A stretch of 64,000 nt of DNA from a virus. The first letter of the stretch is position 1; every line of letters starts with the position of its first letter. Positions 1,341 to 26,694 of the stretch are shown here, piece by piece. Both the position numbers and the translations under genes were made by a program. Under the pieces are notes generated by a model, which worked only from the letters and a program-made list of their open reading frames with translations, ran no database searches and was not told the DNA's origin. Location: positions 1 through 64,000 of IMG/VR virus record IMGVR_UViG_3300032213_001637. One strand, written 5' to 3'.

Positions 1341-2360
1341 ATGAAAGTCGCTACTATCGAAGAAATTGCAGAGGTTATTCCACATCCTAACGCTGATGCT
1401 CTTGAACTCGCCAAGATCAAGGGATGGCAGGTATGTATCAAGAAAGGTGAATTCAAGAAAGGAGATCTGTGCATCTACATTTGTGTTGACAGCGTTCTTG
1501 AAGACAAGTCGGTCTACGAGTTCTTGCGTAACAAGAACTTTCGTATTCGTACCGTCAAACTTCGTGGTCAAATCAGTCAGGGAATTGCTTTTCCAATGTC
1601 AATGTTCAAGAGTCTTGGACATGATACCGTTGTGTTTACTGAACCAAATGTGGTGGGAAGTGACGTTAGTCATTATGTTTATGCCAAACACTATGAGAAG
1701 CCTCTTTCCGCACAACTTTCTGGACAAGTATATGGTCTGATGCCTTCATATCTTCGTAAGACGGATGAAGACAACATTAAGAACAATCCAGAGATCCTTC
1801 AGGAACTTGCTGGTAAGTCATATTACATCACCATGAAGGTGGATGGAAGTAGCGGAACTTACTTCTACAAGGATGATGTTGGATTTGGCGTTTGTAGTCG
1901 TAACTACCAACTTAAGGAAGACGATAAGAATAGTTTTTGGGTTGTTGCTAGAAAGTATGATCTTGAGAACAAGTTGAAGAATGACGGTCGTAATCTTGCC
2001 ATTCAAGGTGAGGTTTACGGACCTGGCATTCAAGGAAATCTACTTGGTGTTAAGGATATTCAGTTTCGTGCATTCAATCTATTTGACATTGACAACTACA
2101 AGTATCTTGATCGTAATGAGCTTTTGAGATTTTGTGATGTGAATGATATTCCTGTTGTTGAAACCATTGACGATGGTACTTCTTTCAACAAGACTCTTCG
2201 AGAATTGCAGGAGTTTGCCAACAATCTCGTTTATGAGAATAATAATCTTGCAGAAGGTATTGTAGTTCGTCCTACTGTAGAGACGTATAGTGAGACTCTA
2301 AAGGGACGATTGTCAGGTAAGATTATTAGTGAGCCATTCGAACTTAAATACAACGATTAA
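1341..2360 (+). CDS. RNA ligase, DRB0094/Rnl2-like family
   Basis: N-terminal HPNADALELAKIKGWQV...KKGEF module; ligase motifs KVDGSS, QGEVYG, FNLF, EGIVVR, KIIS. Confidence 0.9.
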   Translation: MKVATIEEIAEVIPHPNADALELAKIKGWQVCIKKGEFKKGDLCIYICVDSVLEDKSVYEFLRNKNFRIRTVKLRGQISQGIAFPMSMFKSLGHDTVVFTEPNVVGSDVSHYVYAKHYEKPLSAQLSGQVYGLMPSYLRKTDEDNIKNNPEILQELAGKSYYITMKVDGSSGTYFYKDDVGFGVCSRNYQLKEDDKNSFWVVARKYDLENKLKNDGRNLAIQGEVYGPGIQGNLLGVKDIQFRAFNLFDIDNYKYLDRNELLRFCDVNDIPVVETIDDGTSFNKTLRELQEFANNLVYENNNLAEGIVVRPTVETYSETLKGRLSGKIISEPFELKYND

Positions 2361-3145
2361 CTATAGTGTGGTGGTTCTTTTTCTTGACTGCCACTTTCTT
2401 TTTCAACAACAATACTAGGTTTTCCATTAAAATTTCGACCTATTTTTCCGTATAACTTTTCTGCGGTAGGTATTAATTCACTTGGAGTACGTATTGGGAT
2501 AGTATCAATCAATTCATATTTATCATACCACCAACCACCTTCCTCATATCCTCCTAGTGCTCTTGTAATATCATATAAACTGACGTATAACGGATAATTC
2601 AATTCATTGTGAGAATCATTACGATGATGTATCAAACTATACAATTTATGATACGTATCGTGTATTTTTTTAACATTTTCAATATCCTGATCTGTAATAT
2701 TTAGGTTTTTAAGTTCATCGGGGATATTCTTATGAGAAGGATCGGTTTTTGCCAAATCAATAAAACTAATTAACCAATGGTGCATGGACCAATAATTTTC
2801 GTATTCTGCAAATAGACGGTCTATGTAAGACTGAAACTTTTGATAAAACTCTGGCATTTTATCTTTTATGTACTTATAAAGAACCCCGGTACGTTTTTTA
2901 TCATCTTGATCTGAGTGTTCATATGGAACATCAACTATGTGATCAATATGTGCGGTTTCTTTAAAATCTTCATCATCGTTGTGTTTGGGTCTATAATTTG
3001 GATAACCCAATCCATGAGGAAAATTCGTTCCTCCAATTTTCATTCCCGGTTCCAAATCGCTGCCTGGTCTAACCCAATCGTCTCCTTCATCACCGTTTGG
3101 TTTTTTAGCTTCAAATAAATGTTTAAAAAAGTCTTTATAGTCCAT
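2357..3145 (-). CDS. Hypothetical protein with YKDFF leader (putative internal virion protein)
   Basis: Starts MDYKDFFKHLFE; C-terminal LGGYEEGGWWYD motif; ATATTTAT upstream. Confidence 0.7.
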   Translation of the reverse strand: MDYKDFFKHLFEAKKPNGDEGDDWVRPGSDLEPGMKIGGTNFPHGLGYPNYRPKHNDDEDFKETAHIDHIVDVPYEHSDQDDKKRTGVLYKYIKDKMPEFYQKFQSYIDRLFAEYENYWSMHHWLISFIDLAKTDPSHKNIPDELKNLNITDQDIENVKKIHDTYHKLYSLIHHRNDSHNELNYPLYVSLYDITRALGGYEEGGWWYDKYELIDTIPIRTPSELIPTAEKLYGKIGRNFNGKPSIVVEKESGSQEKEPPHYS

Positions 3146-3149
3146 GATG

Positions 3150-3157
3150 ATAAATAT
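3150..3157 (-). promoter_or_regulatory. Putative late promoter motif ATATTTAT
   Basis: 4 nt upstream of minus-strand ATG at 3145. Confidence 0.6.
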
Positions 3158-3171
3158 AAATAAAAAACGAC

Positions 3172-12694: not shown

Positions 12695-12706
12695 ATTATA
12701 TAAATA

Positions 12707-14832: not shown

Positions 14833-14846
14833 ACCGTATAAATATG

Positions 14847-17785: not shown

Positions 17786-17845
17786 ATTTGTATAAATAAC
17801 TATTCAAAATCAATGAACGTTATTTTAATTACACTCTATGTACAC

Positions 17846-17875: not shown

Positions 17876-18832
17876 TTACTTTATCCACTTTTGTTCTTTT
17901 AAAATATCATCAATCAAATCTTTTTCTGCACTGTCCATCTCTTTATCAAATCTCTTTAATATCTCATTTAACGGATACACTCTATCAGGGGATTCCTTTT
18001 GTTTTTCTTTTAATTCTTGAATCACATCAACAATTTTGACCAATGGTGATTTGTATTCATGTACACTATCTTTTGACGCAAAATTTGCCATTTCAAACGC
18101 TTTGGGTGTCAATCCTTTAACCAATGATAATACTGCGGATCCTAACATATTGAAAATGGAAAAAACAGCACCAGCTGCTGGATGTACTGTGGCTAATACT
18201 CTTAATATAACGAAAACCACAACAAATATGATAATAGCGGTCATTGCACTAATAAAGAATTTTTTCAATCCCCAAAAAACAGCATTAAGACCAAACATAC
18301 CGCTCATAGAATCAAGAGTAGCCTTATTTTGGTCAGCTTCTTTTGCAACCTCTTTGGCTGTATCTGTCATTTTCCAAAGTTGATCATCATATTGTGTTTT
18401 TAAATCTTCTTTTTGTCGTTGAAGTCCTACAATAATGGTATCACGTTGTGACAACAATTCATCACCCTTTTTACGTTCTTCTGATAATGCGGAATTTAAT
18501 AAGTCAACTGTGGCTTTAATACGTTTGATTTCATCCAAATGTGGTGATCCTACTATTGAAACAACTCTTTCATTGAGATTTTTTGCTGTTTGTACTTGAA
18601 TTGGCGGATTCGTTACTTGGTTCAATGTATATTGAATTCCTTGTGATAACACCGATGCTTGTACACGTTTACTCTTTTCATTCTTTACAAGTTCATCATA
18701 TGTTTCATCTACCTTTTTTTCTTGCTTTGCAACAGCATCTTGCGCCTCTGTAACTTGTTTAGAAGGTGTTATTTTTGAAGAAAAACAACCAGTCAAAACT
18801 AATAGAAAAACCAAAGTAAGTACGTATCTCAT
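17876..18832 (-). CDS. Lipoprotein with coiled-coil and C-proximal TM segments (spanin-like architecture)
   Basis: Lipobox LTGC; helical/coiled-coil middle; hydrophobic FFISAMTAIIIFVVVFVIL; ATATTTAT upstream. Confidence 0.6.
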   Translation of the reverse strand: MRYVLTLVFLLVLTGCFSSKITPSKQVTEAQDAVAKQEKKVDETYDELVKNEKSKRVQASVLSQGIQYTLNQVTNPPIQVQTAKNLNERVVSIVGSPHLDEIKRIKATVDLLNSALSEERKKGDELLSQRDTIIVGLQRQKEDLKTQYDDQLWKMTDTAKEVAKEADQNKATLDSMSGMFGLNAVFWGLKKFFISAMTAIIIFVVVFVILRVLATVHPAAGAVFSIFNMLGSAVLSLVKGLTPKAFEMANFASKDSVHEYKSPLVKIVDVIQELKEKQKESPDRVYPLNEILKRFDKEMDSAEKDLIDDILKEQKWIK

Positions 18833-18867: not shown

Positions 18868-19236
18868 TTATAAATCTCTTTCGGTTTGACCCCTAATAGT
18901 TTCAAAATACTGAATTAATCGATTTATTAAATCATCAGCCATAGGTTCAATCCAATCTTGTGTTTTAAACTCAGTAGTACTAAGTCCTTGATGTAACGAT
19001 TTCAAGTTATCATTACGAAATTCACTATCTAAAAACAATATTAAATCTTTTTTCAACTTATTTTTATCATTAATAGTAAATACTTCACGCAATTCTTCTT
19101 TGTAACTGACTCTTACTGGTGACTTACCTTTACCACCACTACCAGTTGAACTACCAGTCGGACCTTTGCCAAACCATTGTTTTAGATCTTCATCCAATTG
19201 AAGAATTTTATTTAAAAGTTTTTGTTCGTGGTCCAT
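18868..19236 (-). CDS. Hypothetical protein (putative virion-associated)
   Basis: LDEDLKQWFGKG motif; ATATTTAT upstream. Confidence 0.6.
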   Translation of the reverse strand: MDHEQKLLNKILQLDEDLKQWFGKGPTGSSTGSGGKGKSPVRVSYKEELREVFTINDKNKLKKDLILFLDSEFRNDNLKSLHQGLSTTEFKTQDWIEPMADDLINRLIQYFETIRGQTERDL

Positions 19237-19242
19237 TAATCA

Positions 19243-19290
19243 ATAAATATATTTTAAAACGTAGATCTACCGGTTTTTATTATATTTATA
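19243..19290. promoter_or_regulatory. Divergent pair of ATATTTAT motifs around palindrome GTAGATCTAC
   Basis: ATAAATAT 19243-19250 (minus gene), ATATTTAT 19282-19289 (plus gene), palindrome 19261-19270. Confidence 0.55.
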
Positions 19291-19298
19291 CGTATTGT

Positions 19299-19772
19299 AT
19301 GCCACTATATCCATTAAGCATCATATTTTCACAGAGAAATGCTTCTAATACGAAGTTCGATGAAAAGTATCTGTCTGGCTCCAACATTGTATTTGGTACC
19401 GATGGATCTGGAAATTTAGCAACCATCAGCATTGGGAATATAGTTACAAGTATTAGTAGCAGTGCTAGTACTGGAAGCAATACATTTAATGGAAACCAAA
19501 TTATCAGTGGTAGTTTAGTTATAGTACCAAGTGATGTAAGTTCAAGTCTTAGTGGCAGCGGCGGTGAGATTACTGCTTCTAACGCATACTTTACTAACTC
19601 AATATCATCTCCAAGTGGATCATTTGTATCATTTCAACTGAATACAACAGCATCAGCACCAACCAATCCTACGGCTGGTGGATTGGTTGGCGAAGTGCGT
19701 TTGGATGATAATTATATTTATGTATACGTTAACAATAATTGGAAACGTATCGCAGTAAATCTTTGGGTTTAA
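19299..19772 (+). CDS. Ser/Gly/Thr-rich fibre-like virion protein
   Basis: TGSNTFNGNQIISGSL; C-terminal GEVRLDDNYIYVYVNNNWKR fibre-type motif; start moved to MPLYP. Confidence 0.6.
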   Translation: MPLYPLSIIFSQRNASNTKFDEKYLSGSNIVFGTDGSGNLATISIGNIVTSISSSASTGSNTFNGNQIISGSLVIVPSDVSSSLSGSGGEITASNAYFTNSISSPSGSFVSFQLNTTASAPTNPTAGGLVGEVRLDDNYIYVYVNNNWKRIAVNLWV

Positions 19773-20050
19773 CCCTTTAATATCTGTTTTATTTGAGTAT
19801 TAGTAACTTCGTTGTGACTTAATACTCCCAATTTACCCTTCAACATTTGTAATGCTGCTTTAGGATTCATTCTTCCACAGTTGAATCCTAATATGCTATG
19901 TGATCTACAAAAAGATTCCAACTCGTCAATATCTGCCTGTGGAAACTCCTGAACAGGAGGAAGTGTTGTATCTTCACCTTGTTGTTTTCTACGAACCAAA
20001 CTTTGAAAGATTGGGTCGTTCATAGATGTCGAAAATTCAGGAAAGTTCAT
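19769..20050 (-). CDS. Hypothetical protein
   Basis: 93-aa ORF coupled by ATGA overlap. Confidence 0.6.
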   Translation of the reverse strand: MNFPEFSTSMNDPIFQSLVRRKQQGEDTTLPPVQEFPQADIDELESFCRSHSILGFNCGRMNPKAALQMLKGKLGVLSHNEVTNTQIKQILKG

Positions 20051-22104
20051 ATCGCTTCGTTTTTTGTCTTACTAATGGAAGCGATTGACGAATCTGCTCC
20101 TTTAAGAAGTTCAGCGTTACGTTTCATACGAACAAATACACCACTACCTTTACCTTCGCTTGAACGATACTCATCATCATCCAAATAAACTTTTGCAACT
20201 TGATTCCAATCTGGATTTGGAGAATTAACCAACTTATCAGTTGTTGGATGTTTTTCACCTCTGAAAATACTATCAACCAACATTGTCTGTACCAACGCTG
20301 GAAACTTATTGAAGTTTTTATACTTCTTTTTTGCAATTTCTACTTTTTCTTCATAATCGTATTTAAACAACATAGAAATTTGATCGTTTGATAATAATAC
20401 TTCGGAGAAAGTTTGTGCCGTTGCAGGACCACCTTCCACATATCTTATCAACTGTTCATTTGTTTTTGGATTGTCATTAGGCATTGATGCAATACGACGT
20501 ATATTGTTTCGACTCCCAGCACTTCCATCCAAATGATGCCCCCCGCCAATATGTGGTTTATCTCCAATTAAATAATAGTTTCTAACAGCACCTTCATTCT
20601 TCAATGTATATTTTTGTGATGGAGTTGATGTTTTAATTTCATCAACATTAACATAGATTTTACTACCTTGTTTTTTGATAGCTGTCACTGGCGATTTTCC
20701 TTTTGTTGCAGCATCTACATTAGGGGTACCAAACGCAGCCGCAGCTGCTAATGCAACTGTAGATAACGTTTTTGCTCCCCATGATTCGTTCATAATCTCG
20801 TCAATTCGTATTATACCACGATCATCTGAAACTAAAAGAATATTCTTTTCTTTAATAAACTCACGTATTGTGTTTTTTGTTTTTGGAGTCACTGGTGGTG
20901 TGCCAGTACTTTTATTTCCATCTACATAAAATCCATAACTTTTATCTTCACCTGAGTTTTGTAAATAGATGGTACTATCATTTGGAAGATATTTCAAACG
21001 TACATAACCCTTTCTAAATGCAGATGTATATGGTTCCTTTTCATTAAATCCCATTATCTTATCACTATTATCTTTTACCCACTGTTTGTGATCTCTAACC
21101 ATAATAAGGTCACCACTTGGTGAAATCCAATATGCAATTTCTAAAATGACAGGACGTGAAGCGTTTCTTAACCGTTGTTGTTGATTTCTTTTATAAAATT
21201 GTGGGTCACTGGGTAAATCATTTTCGGTGATGTTATGAAGTGTCATTCCAGTAACTTGATGTATCAAATCTTTAACACACTCAACGTTTTTATCAGCCAA
21301 ACAGTCATCCATTTGTTGACGTTGTTCATCTGACGCTTTTCCATAAAACATCATCAATTCATGAAATCCAACCATGCCTCGATAATCCTCTTCGTTAATG
21401 TTTTCATCAAACTTACGTCCATCTGAACCGAAATGATCCAAGTGATGATAAACATCATCCAAATATTCACCTGCTAAATTCAATTTGGCTTTAACCCAAT
21501 CTTCCAATTTAGTCTCAGGTTTCAACATAGATTGAAGTTCTTTGGCATCATTGTTGATTTGTTTCAACGCACCCATAGCCATATTACTATTGCCAATATC
21601 TTCAATCAACTCTGCAACTAGATTTTTCAGTACCTCATTGTACAGTTCAACTTCACTCACAGAACTACTCTTGGTACGTTTTCCGGCCTGTCTAGCTCTA
21701 CGACCTGCACAATGTGCTCGTTGACTAAATCCTTTGGGATTTGAACAATCAATGCCCTGTTTGTATTTTCTACTCCACTTTTCGTTGATTTGATCTTCTG
21801 GTGTTCCCGCATCTTTTTCGTCACGATAAAACTTCAAATAATCACGAACTGTGGCAACATAATCACATGCGTGATTGAGCTTTGCTTCCACCCAATCCTC
21901 AAGATCTTCAGATGGATTGAACATCTTCTGTAAATCTTCACTGTACTTGATAAGTTTGGTTACATCGCTCATAGCCATTTCAGCGTTTTCTAACTTAACC
22001 ATCAATTTATCGGGATGTGGATTGTCATGATTAATAGGATGATCACTGTCACCCAATCCAGTTGACATACTTTTTTTCCATTGATCTTTTGTAAGTTCGT
22101 TCAT
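20047..22104 (-). CDS. Multi-module putative virion polyprotein with C-terminal T4-lysozyme-like domain
   Basis: Two LEDWV-x-AKL repeats, KWS-x-KYK-x2-IDC-x-NPKGFSQ-x-AHC module, YWISPSG module, hydrophobic TVALAAAAAFG, NEG...HIGGGHHL lysozyme-like motif. Confidence 0.7.
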   Translation of the reverse strand: MNELTKDQWKKSMSTGLGDSDHPINHDNPHPDKLMVKLENAEMAMSDVTKLIKYSEDLQKMFNPSEDLEDWVEAKLNHACDYVATVRDYLKFYRDEKDAGTPEDQINEKWSRKYKQGIDCSNPKGFSQRAHCAGRRARQAGKRTKSSSVSEVELYNEVLKNLVAELIEDIGNSNMAMGALKQINNDAKELQSMLKPETKLEDWVKAKLNLAGEYLDDVYHHLDHFGSDGRKFDENINEEDYRGMVGFHELMMFYGKASDEQRQQMDDCLADKNVECVKDLIHQVTGMTLHNITENDLPSDPQFYKRNQQQRLRNASRPVILEIAYWISPSGDLIMVRDHKQWVKDNSDKIMGFNEKEPYTSAFRKGYVRLKYLPNDSTIYLQNSGEDKSYGFYVDGNKSTGTPPVTPKTKNTIREFIKEKNILLVSDDRGIIRIDEIMNESWGAKTLSTVALAAAAAFGTPNVDAATKGKSPVTAIKKQGSKIYVNVDEIKTSTPSQKYTLKNEGAVRNYYLIGDKPHIGGGHHLDGSAGSRNNIRRIASMPNDNPKTNEQLIRYVEGGPATAQTFSEVLLSNDQISMLFKYDYEEKVEIAKKKYKNFNKFPALVQTMLVDSIFRGEKHPTTDKLVNSPNPDWNQVAKVYLDDDEYRSSEGKGSGVFVRMKRNAELLKGADSSIASISKTKNEAI

Positions 22105-22123
22105 AATTTATAAATATACAGAA

Positions 22124-22552
22124 TCAATCTAATGATCCTTCTAGTATTCGTTTTTTTATATTGGTGGTACTGATACCTTTTGTATACGATAAATAAACCA
22201 ACACAATATCTTGTTCATCTAACCAGTCTTGTGTAAAATTCATTTGAGCAAAATAATCTTTTTTTGCCCAATCATCTCCAATTGCAACAATGTTAGGATG
22301 AACGGATAATATTGAAGGTTTACTATCTTCTCCACCAATATTAGGAATCACTTCGTCAACATATCTAACACCCTCTAAAGAACGTTTTCGTTCATCATAT
22401 GTCATTATAGGGTATTTGTTTTTATATTTAAAAATGAATTCATCCGTATTTAGAGAAACGATGACTCTATCTGAAATTTTTGAACACTGTTTCAAAAAGT
22501 TCATATGACCATAGTGTAATAAGTCAAACGTACCGCCGGTATACAGTATCAT
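22124..22552 (-). CDS. Cytidylyltransferase (TagD/RfaE-II-like)
   Basis: GGTFDLLHYGH, ER...RYVDEV, GDDW, GISTT. Confidence 0.88.
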   Translation of the reverse strand: MILYTGGTFDLLHYGHMNFLKQCSKISDRVIVSLNTDEFIFKYKNKYPIMTYDERKRSLEGVRYVDEVIPNIGGEDSKPSILSVHPNIVAIGDDWAKKDYFAQMNFTQDWLDEQDIVLVYLSYTKGISTTNIKKRILEGSLD

Positions 22553-23631
22553 AACGTGGATATATAGTTTTTAACAAAATCAATCACTTCTTCTTCTGGA
22601 GTTGTGTCTAGATTATCACCATACTGTTTGTTCAAAACGTTTTTAATATCGCCTATAACCTTACCAGGCTTCAAATTGAACGTATTCATGATCCATTCAC
22701 CAGTATACTTTTCAGTACTAACTATGTCAGCGTCTAACTTTTGTTTTTCTTGTTCTACTTTGTCATACAAAGATGGAAACAATGACTTAAAGAAAAAGTC
22801 ATTGTCACCCACATTACGACGTTGACCACTCTGTAACAATTGATCACTTATATACTGTGCGGATTGACGTTCACTACGCATCTTTCTACGATCACCACGA
22901 TTTAATTCTCCACTCAATTGACGAACGTCAAACAATGGAGAAGTTTTGATATACTCAACGATGTCATCTTCGCTCTTAATATTGGAGAAATTGGTATCTA
23001 CATTACGAAAACCAAGAATCTTTTGAGCGTCACGAAGGTTTTTAGTGATAAAAATAGATCTATTTTGACCTTTCTTATCAACAAAGATCTTAAAGAAACC
23101 GTCACTACCATACTTAAATCCGAGTTTTCTAGATATAACGCCAACAATACCTGAAAAGTCGTTGTATGCTAGATAATCTTGTTTGTTACGTGCATCTTCT
23201 TCATCTTTTGCTATAATAAAGTCGATGTGTACTTGTTTATCTAATTTATCCGGACGATACAAAATAGAAAATATGTTACCATTGGTAGTTGCGTACATTT
23301 GTTTTGGTTGATATACGTTACCATTTGATGTTACTATCACAGTTGGTTCGGTGTTTCTGACAATGTTTGAACCAATTATATTTGTTACAATATCTTTTGT
23401 AGATTGTCCAGATGGTGGTACAACCACAATATCAATATCGCCATGATCTTGACGACTTGACAACTTGGTTGTGTTATTGAAGCTAGAAAACTTCTTGGCG
23501 AGTTTCTTTTTCAACTCACCAAATACGCCATGCATTTCTTCGGTTGTTACTCTGTTAGATAAAGATCCAAAGAGTTTTTTAACATTTTCCTCCGAAAGAA
23601 TTTTTCTTGCTATGTCCGATAGTTTGATCAT
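22549..23631 (-). CDS. Pol-beta/PolX-like nucleotidyltransferase with putative head-targeting leader
   Basis: HGDIDIVV and VHIDFI acidic triad; RKLGFKYG; C-terminal LKPGKVIG; leader MIKLSDIARKILSEE. Confidence 0.65.
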   Translation of the reverse strand: MIKLSDIARKILSEENVKKLFGSLSNRVTTEEMHGVFGELKKKLAKKFSSFNNTTKLSSRQDHGDIDIVVVPPSGQSTKDIVTNIIGSNIVRNTEPTVIVTSNGNVYQPKQMYATTNGNIFSILYRPDKLDKQVHIDFIIAKDEEDARNKQDYLAYNDFSGIVGVISRKLGFKYGSDGFFKIFVDKKGQNRSIFITKNLRDAQKILGFRNVDTNFSNIKSEDDIVEYIKTSPLFDVRQLSGELNRGDRRKMRSERQSAQYISDQLLQSGQRRNVGDNDFFFKSLFPSLYDKVEQEKQKLDADIVSTEKYTGEWIMNTFNLKPGKVIGDIKNVLNKQYGDNLDTTPEEEVIDFVKNYISTL

Positions 23632-24548
23632 GTGTCTTTCAATATGTCTTTAAGTATATCAGTTAACTTGATGGGACTTGATTGTTCAACTGATTCATTC
23701 TTTTTCTTTTGCCAAGAAACTGGACTTGGACCTTTTTTCTTACTGGTTCCCTTTTTATTACACTGTGATGGTGTTGGACGGCATGCTGGATACTTGGCTC
23801 TTTTCTCACCAGCTTGACGACCACATGCTTTACATGTTTTACGACTAGTTTTTTTATTTTTACGACAAGTATTACAATCTACCCAACCTTTGCTTTTTCC
23901 TTTTCCACCTTGTCTTGCAAACCATCCATGTAGACCTTGTTTCTTTTCTTTACTAAAGTCTTTTTTCTCTTCTAACTCAACAGATTCTTCTTTTTTCTCC
24001 CAAATTTCACCTGTTCTGCATCGAACCATCGCACCCGATTTGTAAGCAGATGTTTTAGGACCATACACACTATCTGCTTTTTTATGACATCTATCTTTAT
24101 TCTTTTTACGTTCATCTAAAGATGGTTCATCGATATCAAGATCGATACCTGACACCTTACTTGGACCAACTGGTTCACTATCTTTGACTTGTCCAACAGG
24201 TGTAGTTCCTATCTTACCTACCACATTGTTTCCCGGTGTACAAGATATTTCACTTCCCAATCTGGATTTATCATTAAAACTCTGTTTAGGATCACCAAAT
24301 CCAGAATTGGCTTGTGGTTGGAATTCCTTGGCAAGTCCAGCAGCAACCAACTTGGTATAATATTCTGGATCTTCTGTCAAATGATCCAATGCAATTTCGG
24401 TTGCAATCTTTTCATTATTCGTATGTTCCATTTCTACTTGAACACCAATTGCAAGTTGTGCGGGGTTAACAGTTGAAGACGCAGTTGCGTCACCAACTCC
24501 ACCTTTTAGTTGTCCATCTTCATTGATAAAAAAGTCTTTGTATTTCAT
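23628..24548 (-). CDS. DUF5661-like multi-module protein with YKDFF leader
   Basis: MKYKDFFINE; GVQVEMEHT...EIALDHLTEDPEYYTKL; SAYKSGAMVRCR; basic Cys-rich WVDC...CGR...YPACRP module. Confidence 0.7.
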   Translation of the reverse strand: MKYKDFFINEDGQLKGGVGDATASSTVNPAQLAIGVQVEMEHTNNEKIATEIALDHLTEDPEYYTKLVAAGLAKEFQPQANSGFGDPKQSFNDKSRLGSEISCTPGNNVVGKIGTTPVGQVKDSEPVGPSKVSGIDLDIDEPSLDERKKNKDRCHKKADSVYGPKTSAYKSGAMVRCRTGEIWEKKEESVELEEKKDFSKEKKQGLHGWFARQGGKGKSKGWVDCNTCRKNKKTSRKTCKACGRQAGEKRAKYPACRPTPSQCNKKGTSKKKGPSPVSWQKKKNESVEQSSPIKLTDILKDILKDT

Positions 24549-24742
24549 GGTCGGTTATTACCTTTATGTTTATGTTGTGACGCTTCTTGTTCTGCTTGTT
24601 GCATTTTACTATAACCATTTGAAGGATATGCATAATCGATTTGCCATCTACGACCTTTCATCGCAGGATGGCCAATCAATGGATCTTGAAGTTTCTTCTG
24701 AGATCCAATTATATACCAATCCCCCGGTGGTTTAGAGTCCAT
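24545..24742 (-). CDS. Small hypothetical protein
   Basis: MDSKPPGDWY...; fills the gap and overlaps both neighbours. Confidence 0.5.
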   Translation of the reverse strand: MDSKPPGDWYIIGSQKKLQDPLIGHPAMKGRRWQIDYAYPSNGYSKMQQAEQEASQHKHKGNNRP

Positions 24743-26648
24743 AATTACGTCTCTTTTTCTTTTCTTCCCACTTTTCATCCATCAACTTCTTAATAGCTTC
24801 AAAGTTACCATATTTTTGTTCAACACGTTCACGTGTTTTAGATGCATTAGCCATATCACGTATGATACTTCCAATCGTCTCCTTTTGAGTTTCGTTCATT
24901 GTAGGTTGTTCTTTCTGTTTTTCTTCTGCAATTTCATCAATACCTAAAATAATAAATCTAGCAACTGTGTGTATCACAGTTAAATTTTTCTGTATTGCAT
25001 CTTTATTGCCTTGCCATAATGCAATATATGTTGCACCATGTTTTGTATCCAAATTATAATGATTTGTTACAGTGTATGCAACTGCTTCTGCTTGAAGTTC
25101 AGCTTCTGCTCTGGTTAATCTCATTGTTTCATCATTTCCATAGAACACTGAACTATCTTTGAAATGCAATAGTGAATGTGCAATTTCATGAACCAACGTA
25201 GACAAACGATTTATTCCGGAAACATTACTTGTCAAGTTAATATGGTCACCGCTTGCCCATCCCATTTCTCCACCTTTTGCGTCACTATGAGTAACCTTGA
25301 TTTGTTTATCCTTACAAAACTTTAAAAGATACTCATATATTTTATCTGCTGTTTCACTTGGTGTATTTTGATCGTGCCATACTGGAGCTTCTGGAATTTT
25401 TCCTTTTTCAGCAGCGTTGGTGTCTGAAATATCATATACGATGCCGATTCTAAATTTTGTTATTTGATTTTTTGAAATTTCATCATCTACTCCTTCATCA
25501 TCTCCGGGTTTAAAACGATCACCTGGCTTACTTTCACTATCGTCTTTCTTGTTTTTAATAGGTACCCATATTCTAATATGAGTAGCAGTTTTTAAATTTA
25601 CGGTTACGCCAAGTTCTCTCCATTTTGATTTACCAGCAACCTGTGTTGCGTTTGGTTTTTGTGCCCAAATCAATAAACTGTTAGTAAAACTATACTTTTT
25701 AAATTTCTTTTTAAAATCTAAAAACGATTTCAATTTGTCGCTAACTTTAACACCTTCAACGGCATCAGCCAATCCGTCAATGATTGTTTTAACTTTTTCA
25801 GCGAGTTCTCTTCTTTTATTAAAATCGTCTCTCTCCACAAACACTTTGAGATTTTCAAAGGTGTGTAACAACTCTTCAAATTGTATTGGACCGGACTTTG
25901 GAGGTGTCCATGTTTTAGTCTTCCAATTATATGAATAACCAGCATTTATTTTATCAATCGCTTTCATATAATATCTTAAATCTTCATCAGTAGTATATGG
26001 TTTTTCCCATCCTATATCTGGATTCCATGTAAAGCCTAAAGATTTAATACCATCCTTGGATTTGTAGGTTTCATTACCAGCCGCTCTAGAACTGGCAAGA
26101 GTATTTTTGGGATCGTTATCAGGAGATTCTGGTTTATCTGGATCATATGGTTTGTATAAATCAGAAACCACAATAATGTACTGTTTGCCAGTTTCTTCGT
26201 CATCATACCGATGAAGTTCTAACTTTTCATTGATATCACCATCAACCGATTCGTTCATCATATCAGTAGTCATTCCTAACATACCAAGATCACGATAATA
26301 ACGTGGGTTTTCTTTCAAATTTTGAACAACATTTTGTTTAGCAACCATCTTGTTCTTGAAAATCTGTTTCTTGAGTTCATAGTCCATTCCCTGAATGATA
26401 TCATCAGGGGTGACCTTGGTTTTGATATCCTCAATATCTTTTTTGTACTGTTCTGGATCAATTTTTGATTTAATGTCTTGATCGACTGGTTGTACAACAT
26501 TGACATTTGAACTGTCAGCAGGAAAAGATCCGGGGTTCTGAACGACATCAGGTGATGAATATGTCCCAGATTGACCAGATAAGGGTGATTGACCCCCTAC
26601 CGCAATCTGACTCATGTTATATTCTTTGAAGAAGTCTTTATATGTCAT
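24732..26648 (-). CDS. Polyvalent protein: YKDFF leader, DUF5661-like, ArdC-N and zincin metallopeptidase
   Basis: MTYKDFFKE; KYSFTNSLLIWAQKPNATQVAG-x3-W-x2-LG (ArdC-N); LVHEIAH...AELQAE-x-VAY (HExxH); ATATTTATA upstream. Confidence 0.8.
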   Translation of the reverse strand: MTYKDFFKEYNMSQIAVGGQSPLSGQSGTYSSPDVVQNPGSFPADSSNVNVVQPVDQDIKSKIDPEQYKKDIEDIKTKVTPDDIIQGMDYELKKQIFKNKMVAKQNVVQNLKENPRYYRDLGMLGMTTDMMNESVDGDINEKLELHRYDDEETGKQYIIVVSDLYKPYDPDKPESPDNDPKNTLASSRAAGNETYKSKDGIKSLGFTWNPDIGWEKPYTTDEDLRYYMKAIDKINAGYSYNWKTKTWTPPKSGPIQFEELLHTFENLKVFVERDDFNKRRELAEKVKTIIDGLADAVEGVKVSDKLKSFLDFKKKFKKYSFTNSLLIWAQKPNATQVAGKSKWRELGVTVNLKTATHIRIWVPIKNKKDDSESKPGDRFKPGDDEGVDDEISKNQITKFRIGIVYDISDTNAAEKGKIPEAPVWHDQNTPSETADKIYEYLLKFCKDKQIKVTHSDAKGGEMGWASGDHINLTSNVSGINRLSTLVHEIAHSLLHFKDSSVFYGNDETMRLTRAEAELQAEAVAYTVTNHYNLDTKHGATYIALWQGNKDAIQKNLTVIHTVARFIILGIDEIAEEKQKEQPTMNETQKETIGSIIRDMANASKTRERVEQKYGNFEAIKKLMDEKWEEKKKRRNYGL

Positions 26649-26694
26649 AATCTATAAATATGTTAGAAATAACAAACAACACTGGATATTATAG

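Follow-up and report, generated by a model that had tools for sequence, protein, structure and literature searches.

Genes of the cluster and relatives of the phage

We analyzed a cluster of minus-strand genes at positions 18868-26661 of IMG/VR virus record IMGVR_UViG_3300032213_001637, within the first 64 kb of that record (the window). The record is 109,021 bp long and has a CheckV completeness of 35%. The window is a piece of a ~300-kb T4-related myovirus whose probable hosts are members of the Bacteroidota or other aquatic bacteria; the genes for tail sheath, tube, hub, and tape measure are in the remainder of the record, beyond the window. A preliminary description of this DNA had proposed that the cluster encodes polyproteins with a common N-terminal tag that are loaded into the prohead, cut into separate effectors, and injected with the DNA. 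The genes of the cluster encode, from the highest to the lowest coordinates, proteins of 638, 306, 360, 142, 685, 93, and 122 amino acids (aa), with a small open reading frame (ORF) between the first two.

The closest complete genomes, as judged by sheath and terminase, are those of Flavobacterium phage immuto, Microcystis phage Mel-JY01, and LR756508. A 128-kb contig, G004, has 28 proteins co-linear with the record. Megablast of 18-28 kb of the window against cultured phages gave zero matches.

Short leaders head otherwise dissimilar proteins

Three long minus-strand ORFs, with starts at 3145, 24548, and 26648, begin with the tag M-x-YKDFF (the type-1 leader). The tag is part of MDYKDFFKHLFE (residues 1-12) in a 262-aa protein encoded outside the span of the cluster (2357-3145, minus strand), of MKYKDFFINE (residues 1-10) in the 306-aa protein (23628-24548, minus strand), and of MTYKDFFKE (residues 1-9; 26622-26648, minus strand) in the 638-aa protein (24732-26648, minus strand). 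A second class (type 2, MIKLxDIxxxIxxE) heads the 360-aa ORF (MIKLSDIARKILSEE; 22549-23631, minus strand) and an 80-aa ORF on the plus strand (MTKLELKKLIKEVLSE; 58-300). The preliminary description had also noticed that IKLTDILKDIL recurs at the C-terminus of the 306-aa protein, and there IKLTDILKDILKD forms residues 293-305, just before the overlapping start of the next gene. All of the strings that it had quoted were recovered in place, each on the minus strand except for the ORF at 58.

The position of the type-1 tag within proteins is not random. The pattern Y[KQR][DE]F[FILV] occurs four times in the six frames of the 109-kb record, and in three of these four cases it begins at residue 3 of a long ORF (Fisher test of N-terminal against internal positions, p = 1e-4). 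A scan of IMG/VR with a back-translated tag pattern found at least 113 loci. Among them are at least 53 ORFs of 60 aa or longer whose first residues are exactly M-x-YKDFF and which lack an upstream in-frame ATG. After removal of the first 12 residues, these fall into at least 18 cargo families with no similarity to one another, the biggest being one homologous group with 19 members among the matches listed. The codons of the tag vary freely at synonymous positions (TAT 22 and TAC 14, GAT 19 and GAC 17, among the matches listed), which indicates selection on the peptide and not on the RNA, and the tag is also found behind quite different upstream sequences. The type-2 class and its looser amphipathic relatives are enriched at N-termini as well, with odds of 12-19 for a pattern that was chosen post hoc. 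As far as can be read from these sequences, the leaders are specific to N-termini, are selected at the protein level, and are placed on unrelated cargo in many T4-like contigs.

Two of the type-1 leaders of the window contain L/I-x-E, as I-N-E at residues 8-10 in the 306-aa protein and as L-F-E at 10-12 in the 262-aa protein; the 638-aa protein has F-K-E at 7-9 instead. In the 262-aa protein, the leader is followed by an acidic run, a TNFPHG core, and a C-terminal domain of the GGxEEGGWWYD type. We found 153 representatives of this family. Among the 20 representatives with the core motif, 18 have a leader that ends in hydrophobic-x-E by residue 24, compared to a background of 42% (p = 1e-5), and homologues in different phages have different leader classes before the TNFPHG core.

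Many homologues of the 360-aa protein read ...I-x-x-E-G-G, which led us to consider double-glycine leaders of the bacteriocin type. This candidate was rejected: other leader-bearing modules have no GG, the cargo consists of cytoplasmic-type enzymes, and no export peptidase is nearby.

Modules begin directly after hydrophobic-x-Glu strings

In five comparisons, modules of the cluster proteins begin exactly after a hydrophobic-x-Glu string. Exactly at such a string, four families have exchanged their partner or are fused in one protein and encoded by a free gene elsewhere: a basic peptide of the WTKKYKK type, a PSAY/DUF5872-like module, a GWVDC module, and an ArdC-like cassette. In free genes the small WTKKYKK-type peptide is preceded by LIPE, IILE, or SIDE, whereas in the 685-aa chain QINE precedes it. 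In front of the PSAY/DUF5872-like module there is a leader ending in LLEE in G004 and a linker ending in SLDE in the 306-aa protein, and the GWVDC module follows DLDE in L026 and LEE in the 306-aa protein. The 638-aa protein is homologous to a 290-aa protein of L116 (E = 7e-23) through MMNE...DINE. The homology halts exactly there, and past this point L116 has unrelated sequence in place of the ArdC-like cassette. In addition, the optional NINE-NITE module of the 685-aa chain is cleanly missing in G001 and in many homologues, which then end at an invariant L/F-D-E.

Two of the joints could be followed in an alignment of the 685-aa family, in which column identity averages 25%. At reference position 108, [IL]-x-E is present in 24 of 24 diverse sequences with x variable, and large insertions in homologues end right before this joint. 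At reference position 440, [ILMV]-x-E is present in 25 of 25. The putative pieces between joints alternate between acidic and strongly basic (net charge -11, +10, -8, and so on).

The preliminary description had placed module boundaries at [ILM]-x-E strings. The strings that it named are present in the 685-aa protein (QINE 105-108, NINE 235-238, NITE 291-294, and IMNE 437-440) and in the 638-aa protein (MMNE 130-133, DINE 138-141, and TMNE 583-586). The density of generic [ILM]-x-E is not raised in the cluster proteins, and the idea of an enrichment was rejected. The narrower [IM]-N-E was found at 4 and 3 sites compared to 0.44 and 0.41 expected (p = 1e-3 and 8e-3), in a post hoc test whose significance is lost on correction for ~123 proteins. 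The case for joints therefore rests on the comparative evidence and not on motif density: modules are swapped, deleted, or split into separate genes exactly at hydrophobic-x-Glu, which supports the proposed boundaries.

Predicted activities of the leader-bearing proteins

The 638-aa protein consists of the leader (1-9), a conserved N-terminal module (~15-129), the tandem joints MMNE and DINE, and then the ArdC-like cassette, which contains HEIAH (487-491, invariant); the TMNE joint and a basic C-terminal tail follow. The protein matches Pfam ArdcN at 22.9 bits (cut-off 22.6) and scores 19.9 against Peptidase_M78, under the cut-off of 22. Of the 39 other proteins among the listed homologue matches, 38 have PF08401 as a precomputed assignment. 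Across 15 orthologues there is no variation in the leader, in MMNES, or in H487, E488, and H491. An AlphaFold2 model made with the 15 orthologues had a pLDDT of 41.8, with only the HExxH region at ~70. The cassette is probably an ArdC-like single-stranded DNA (ssDNA)-binding domain and metalloprotease, with a predicted anti-restriction function.

In the 306-aa protein, MKYKDFFINE is followed by a DUF5661 domain (Pfam, E = 6.6e-12), a linker ending in SLDE (143-146), the PSAY/DUF5872-like basic module, VELEE (190-194), the GWVDC...KYPxCRP Cys module, and the copy of the type-2 leader. BLASTP matched its DUF5661 domain (E = 7e-9) and its GWVDC module (E = 2e-5) to free-standing genes of L026. 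Two proteins, P0195 and P0199, have the tag, DUF5661, and the nucleotidyltransferase in one chain, with the type-2 motif as an internal joint. Such fusions account for the copy of the next gene's leader at the C-terminus of the 306-aa protein.

The 360-aa protein is predicted, from its palm fold and GD.D motif, to be a Pol-X-like (Pol-beta-superfamily) nucleotidyltransferase. Its AlphaFold2 model had a mean pLDDT of 89.5, with residues 1-4 and 9-17 below 50, and the leader was modeled as a low-confidence helix (4-13), detached and ahead of the well-folded core. The best Foldseek matches of the model were to Pol beta/lambda (probability 1.0, TM 0.35-0.49), and G64, D65, and D67 of the GD.D carboxylate motif are invariant in the family. 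The type-2 leader is kept down to 38% identity, and some members of the family have no leader.

The 685-aa chain (20047-22104, minus strand) begins with an acidic helical module, QINE, a basic WSRKYK...Cys peptide (109-151), a second helical module, and FDE/NINE. The second half has the optional module, NITE, a middle domain, IMNE, an Ala-rich hydrophobic stretch (445-461), and a putative GH24-like wall hydrolase. There was no direct Pfam match at the C-terminus; it matches P0098 by BLASTP (E = 1e-13), for which PF00959 is a precomputed assignment with unchecked domain coordinates. The C-terminal wall hydrolase is swapped within the family between PF07486 (SleB-like), PF00959 (GH24), and PF05497 (destabilase/i-type lysozyme). 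An invariant Glu and a hydrophobic stretch rich in Ala, Gly, and Thr always precede the hydrolase (20050-20784, minus strand; homologues P0046-P0160), and this stretch looks like a signal-anchor-release segment. Sequence searches of the PDB with the 638-, 360-, and 685-aa proteins gave marginal matches only.

Head genes and T4-type machinery in the clade

G004 has matches to the Peptidase_S77 (gp21-type) protease (101202-101846) and to the Gp23 capsid protein. An ORF between the two is a candidate scaffold, identified by position and acidic composition, and has no PHROG match. It also encodes a 1238-aa protein starting with MEYKDFF. A tblastn search with this protein and with a small tagged protein found no cultured homologues. 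An S77 protease is present in all three of the nearest complete genomes (immuto, where it is gp070, Mel-JY01, and LR756508). For Gp23, the search among these relatives covered G004, and the immuto Gp23 is known by annotation. In immuto, gp072, gp080, gp084, gp094, and gp095 begin with type-2 leaders. The N-termini of the capsid proteins of the clade keep Q-[LI]-[VL]-[ST]-E ~40 residues ahead of the QPMN core, at about the position at which T4 gp23 is cleaved after L-T-E.

In 12 contigs of a sister group, ~100-aa MxYKDFF proteins with an acidic run and a DUF5872-like basic end are encoded between the large terminase and the portal. The same slot contains free-standing genes for every module type of the long proteins of the window. 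Its DUF5661, GWVDC, and basic-peptide genes carry MIKL-type leaders (the GWVDC gene has one of the MIRFADLL type), and a tiny gene combines a 10-residue MIKL-type leader with a very basic Cys peptide. There are also a 294-aa MQYKSFF protein and an HExxH protein adjoining the protease. In PHROGs, the genes between portal and protease and the small tagged genes had few matches, all to families of unknown function, and received no functional name.

The motif RMQ(K/Q)LAG(I/L) forms the C-terminal end of the candidate scaffold of G004 (L124 5024-6004) and is also present near the N-terminus of otherwise unrelated 140-, 914-, and 154-aa proteins (G004 125519-125941 and 112288-115032; immuto L136 11676-12140). 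It may be a third class of address, one that copies the scaffold's own capsid-binding end.

Neighboring genes and the late motif

A gene for a 142-aa cytidylyltransferase-like protein (22124-22552, minus strand; Pfam PF01467, E = 8e-19) lies between the 360-aa and 685-aa genes. Its start overlaps the upstream stop codon, and a gene at this position was found only in this phage. It is probably an insertion and may not be cargo. The small ORF between the 638-aa and 306-aa genes (65-77 aa; 24545-24778, minus strand) fills a 183-nt gap and overlaps both genes. It is kept in G001, G002, and G008 (MDSKPPGDWY... type; L126 4216-4413).

A 93-aa ORF (19769-20050, minus strand) adjoins the 685-aa gene, also in relatives. 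The 122-aa ORF (18868-19236, minus strand) has an amphipathic start with an L-D-E end and a late-type motif upstream, and its WFGKG...GGKGK motif resembles, by eye, the start of the GWVDC module. Between these two genes, on the opposite strand, is a 157-aa ORF (19299-19772, plus strand) that is 90% conserved in relatives, rich in Ser, Gly, and Thr, and has a YIYVYVNNNWKR-type motif at its end; it is possibly fiber-related. A YIYVYVNNNWKR-like motif is also readable just upstream of a 63-aa ORF at 66287-66478 of the record. In all relatives the cluster is adjoined by the gene for a 318-aa lipoprotein (17876-18832, minus strand; lipobox LTGC) with a coiled coil, several membrane segments, and a late-type motif upstream. 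This protein could be a lysis or entry component.

The motif TATTTATA is the reverse complement of the T4 late promoter word. There were 17 matches compared to 9.5 expected, and seven of them are 4-9 nt before a start codon with no Shine-Dalgarno sequence. On the minus strand, the motif precedes the 638-aa gene (26653-26660, 4 nt before the ATG), the 685-aa gene (22109-22116), and the 262-aa gene (3155-3162), and lies upstream of start codons at 12699-12706, 14837-14844, and 17791-17798; on the plus strand it is at 45-52, also upstream of a start codon. Tail and head genes elsewhere in the record and in G004 and phage immuto also have the motif in front of them; in G004 and immuto it lies 10-20 nt upstream of structural genes. 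TATTTATA is a probable late promoter element, and if so, the late mRNAs of these genes would be leaderless or nearly so.

Comparison with known packaging and delivery systems

The capsid targeting sequence (CTS) of T4 is MKTYQEFIAE (PMC8442874), in which targeting depends on residues 4 and 7 and processing on residues 8 and 10 (PMC9026906). The T-even internal proteins are a diverse set that counters host defenses and has the CTS alone in common. MKYKDFFINE resembles the CTS in its 10 residues, its Tyr and Phe three apart, and its I-x-E at 8-10, a likeness too short for statistics. As in IPI, IPII, and IPIII of T4 (PMC8442874, PMC9026906, PMC3012670), a leader of ~10 residues is present on otherwise unrelated proteins, with aromatic residues three apart and with I-x-E at 8-10 in one of the three tags of the window; the predicted cargo includes basic proteins and one of an anti-restriction type, and genes for an S77 protease and a Gp23-type capsid protein are known from the clade, together with a candidate acidic scaffold ORF. 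The differences are that the leader sequences are new and of at least two classes, that the proteins are often multi-module chains with leader-type motifs at internal joints, and that they reach 685-1238 aa, whereas the T4 internal proteins are ~10-20 kDa.

The T4 protease gp21 cuts after L/I-x-E, and proteases of this type act on every L/I-x-E that is accessible in the core (PMC9026906). The T4 proteins Alt, gp67, and gp68 belong to the prohead core and are processed at several L/I-x-E sites; Alt is cut at both ends (PMC9026906). They are larger packaged enzymes and core proteins trimmed at more than one site by one protease, as the cluster proteins would be. However, Alt is a single enzyme and not a chain of exchangeable modules, and no sequence similarity was found. 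In phiKZ, 201phi2-1, and SPN3US (gp175/gp245 proteases), a relative of gp21 cleaves numerous head proteins after Glu, enzymes among them, and these are ejected (PMC9026906, PMC5694885). Their propeptides have redundant cleavage sites. Their motif is S/A-x-E, whereas the conserved joints here have I, L, M, or V at P3, a hydrophobic residue as in T4, and a shared N-terminal address tag is not described for them.

ArdC of plasmid R388 has an ssDNA-binding N-terminal domain and a metalloprotease, and overcomes restriction in the recipient (PMC7213743). The ArdcN match and the invariant HExxH of the 638-aa protein are shared with it, and by analogy both may be delivered or act at DNA entry. In the 638-aa protein, however, the cassette is embedded between a leader-bearing N-terminal module and a basic tail and its peptidase score is below the cut-off; ArdC is from a conjugative plasmid and the 638-aa protein is from a phage.

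Interpretation and alternatives

We consider it moderately probable that the cluster belongs to a T4-style system of capsid targeting and prohead protease that loads modular cargo. From the leaders, their distribution, the module swaps at joints, and the protease of the clade, we infer core binding, cleavage, retention, and injection as follows. The short amphipathic N-terminal leader of late proteins (M-x-YKDFF or MIKLxDIxxxIxxE) would act like the T4 CTS and bind the scaffolding core, so that the protein is built into the prohead. A gp21-type protease would cut after the Glu of hydrophobic-x-Glu, taking off the leader and separating the modules of the long chains. The released pieces would remain in the head and exit with the DNA. 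The proposed cargo comprises the ArdC-like cassette, the Pol-X-like nucleotidyltransferase, the hydrophobic-anchored peptidoglycan hydrolase, and the very basic Cys-containing peptides, which are probably DNA-associated internal proteins. The principle is the known one of T4; the leader sequences, their two or more classes, and the chaining of modules would be new. The comparative evidence above is strong and supports this reading in part.

Several results weigh against this reading. Neither the 109-kb record nor eight further lineage fragments with a completeness of 15-49% yielded an S77 protease, Gp23 capsid, or scaffold gene, so that the protease of this phage is deduced by bracketing; we think that the head genes lie in the unsampled part of the genome. 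The cytidylyltransferase gene has no leader although it is inside the cluster, and it is not between the two neighboring genes in G001, G002, and G003. The exact M-x-YKDFF tag was not found in immuto, Mel-JY01, or LR756508, the cultured relatives. The leader of the 638-aa protein ends in F-K-E instead of I/L-x-E, and among the tag families in the matches listed, 6 of 18 have [ILMV]-x-E ending at residues 9-13, more than the background of 8-13% (p = 0.02) and yet a canonical site in one third only. Conserved [ILMV]-x-D sites match x-E sites in frequency within the 685-aa family, generic x-x-E is no denser than expected, and the hydrolase chain, with its lipoprotein/membrane protein neighbor, could be part of lysis or of the tail. 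For the 638-aa protein, the model did not have the quality needed to place domains and was not used for domain limits. The original proposal of head-loaded, cleaved polyproteins thus gains from the leaders, the gp21-type protease of the clade, and the module swaps, and loses from the missing protease, scaffold, and capsid genes and from the leaderless gene.

The leaders could address proteins to the prohead or virion while the long chains stay uncut, as intact multidomain ejection proteins in which the x-Glu strings are linkers or helix ends and joints tolerant of recombination. T7 gp16 is such an intact multidomain ejection protein. Conserved [ILMV]-x-D is as frequent as conserved x-E sites in the 685-aa family and generic x-x-E is not enriched, as this explanation would have it; virion hydrolases are commonly multidomain, and a hydrophobic stretch with a hydrolase is like a channel-forming ejection protein. 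We nevertheless regard it as unlikely, since the modules are also free genes in which a leader ending in the same hydrophobic-x-E stands directly before the module, since acidic and very basic pieces alternate as in pairs of propeptide and mature protein, and since T4-type proteases cut all accessible L/I-x-E in the core (PMC9026906).

The cluster could also be unrelated to the head. The 685-aa chain, encoded beside the gene for the lipoprotein/membrane protein, could be a lysis or tail component, and the helices could serve oligomerization, chaperone or membrane targeting, or the translation of leaderless mRNA. The Ala-rich stretch before a swappable hydrolase is like that of signal-anchor-release endolysins, the 318-aa lipoprotein with its membrane segments is next to the cluster (17876-18832), and TATTTATA is 4-5 nt before several ATGs, where the first codons might affect translation. 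Synonymous variation in the tag speaks against a signal in the RNA, however, and the tag is also present behind quite different upstream sequences. Tagged genes and all module types are found within the head-gene modules of the sister clade, 440 residues ahead of an endolysin would be unprecedented, and ArdC-like and nucleotidyltransferase cargo has no role in lysis. A lysis or tail function is therefore distinctly unlikely.

It is very improbable that the shared N-termini are functionless relics of paralogy or of recombining cassettes: a DUF5661-like helical region follows the tag in both the 306-aa and the 638-aa protein (by eye) and the biggest tag family is one homologous group with its 19 listed members, but at least 18 families have no detectable similarity once 12 residues are trimmed, homologues of the 262-aa and 360-aa proteins have different leader classes or none, and the motif is strictly N-terminal.

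Implications

Targeting to the prohead and cleavage within it, as proposed here for the cluster, leads to a wider and more tentative possibility, that an abundant aquatic clade of T4-related jumbo phages has a plug-in cargo system. Interchangeable leader helices ending in hydrophobic-x-Glu would be both prohead address and cutting joint, so that a module could become part of a polyprotein or return to a free gene and still be packaged. The plugged-in modules may include domains for anti-restriction, nucleotidyl transfer, and wall hydrolysis as well as basic peptides that coat DNA. If this is true, the capsid-targeting principle of T4 would extend beyond the T-evens and serve large environmental phages as a general and evolvable platform for delivery. 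The domain shuffling in these genes would be explained, and injected proteins, such as counter-defense enzymes that act ahead of gene expression, would be predictable from sequence. The leaders would also provide new short tags for loading foreign proteins into the heads of phages of non-model hosts.

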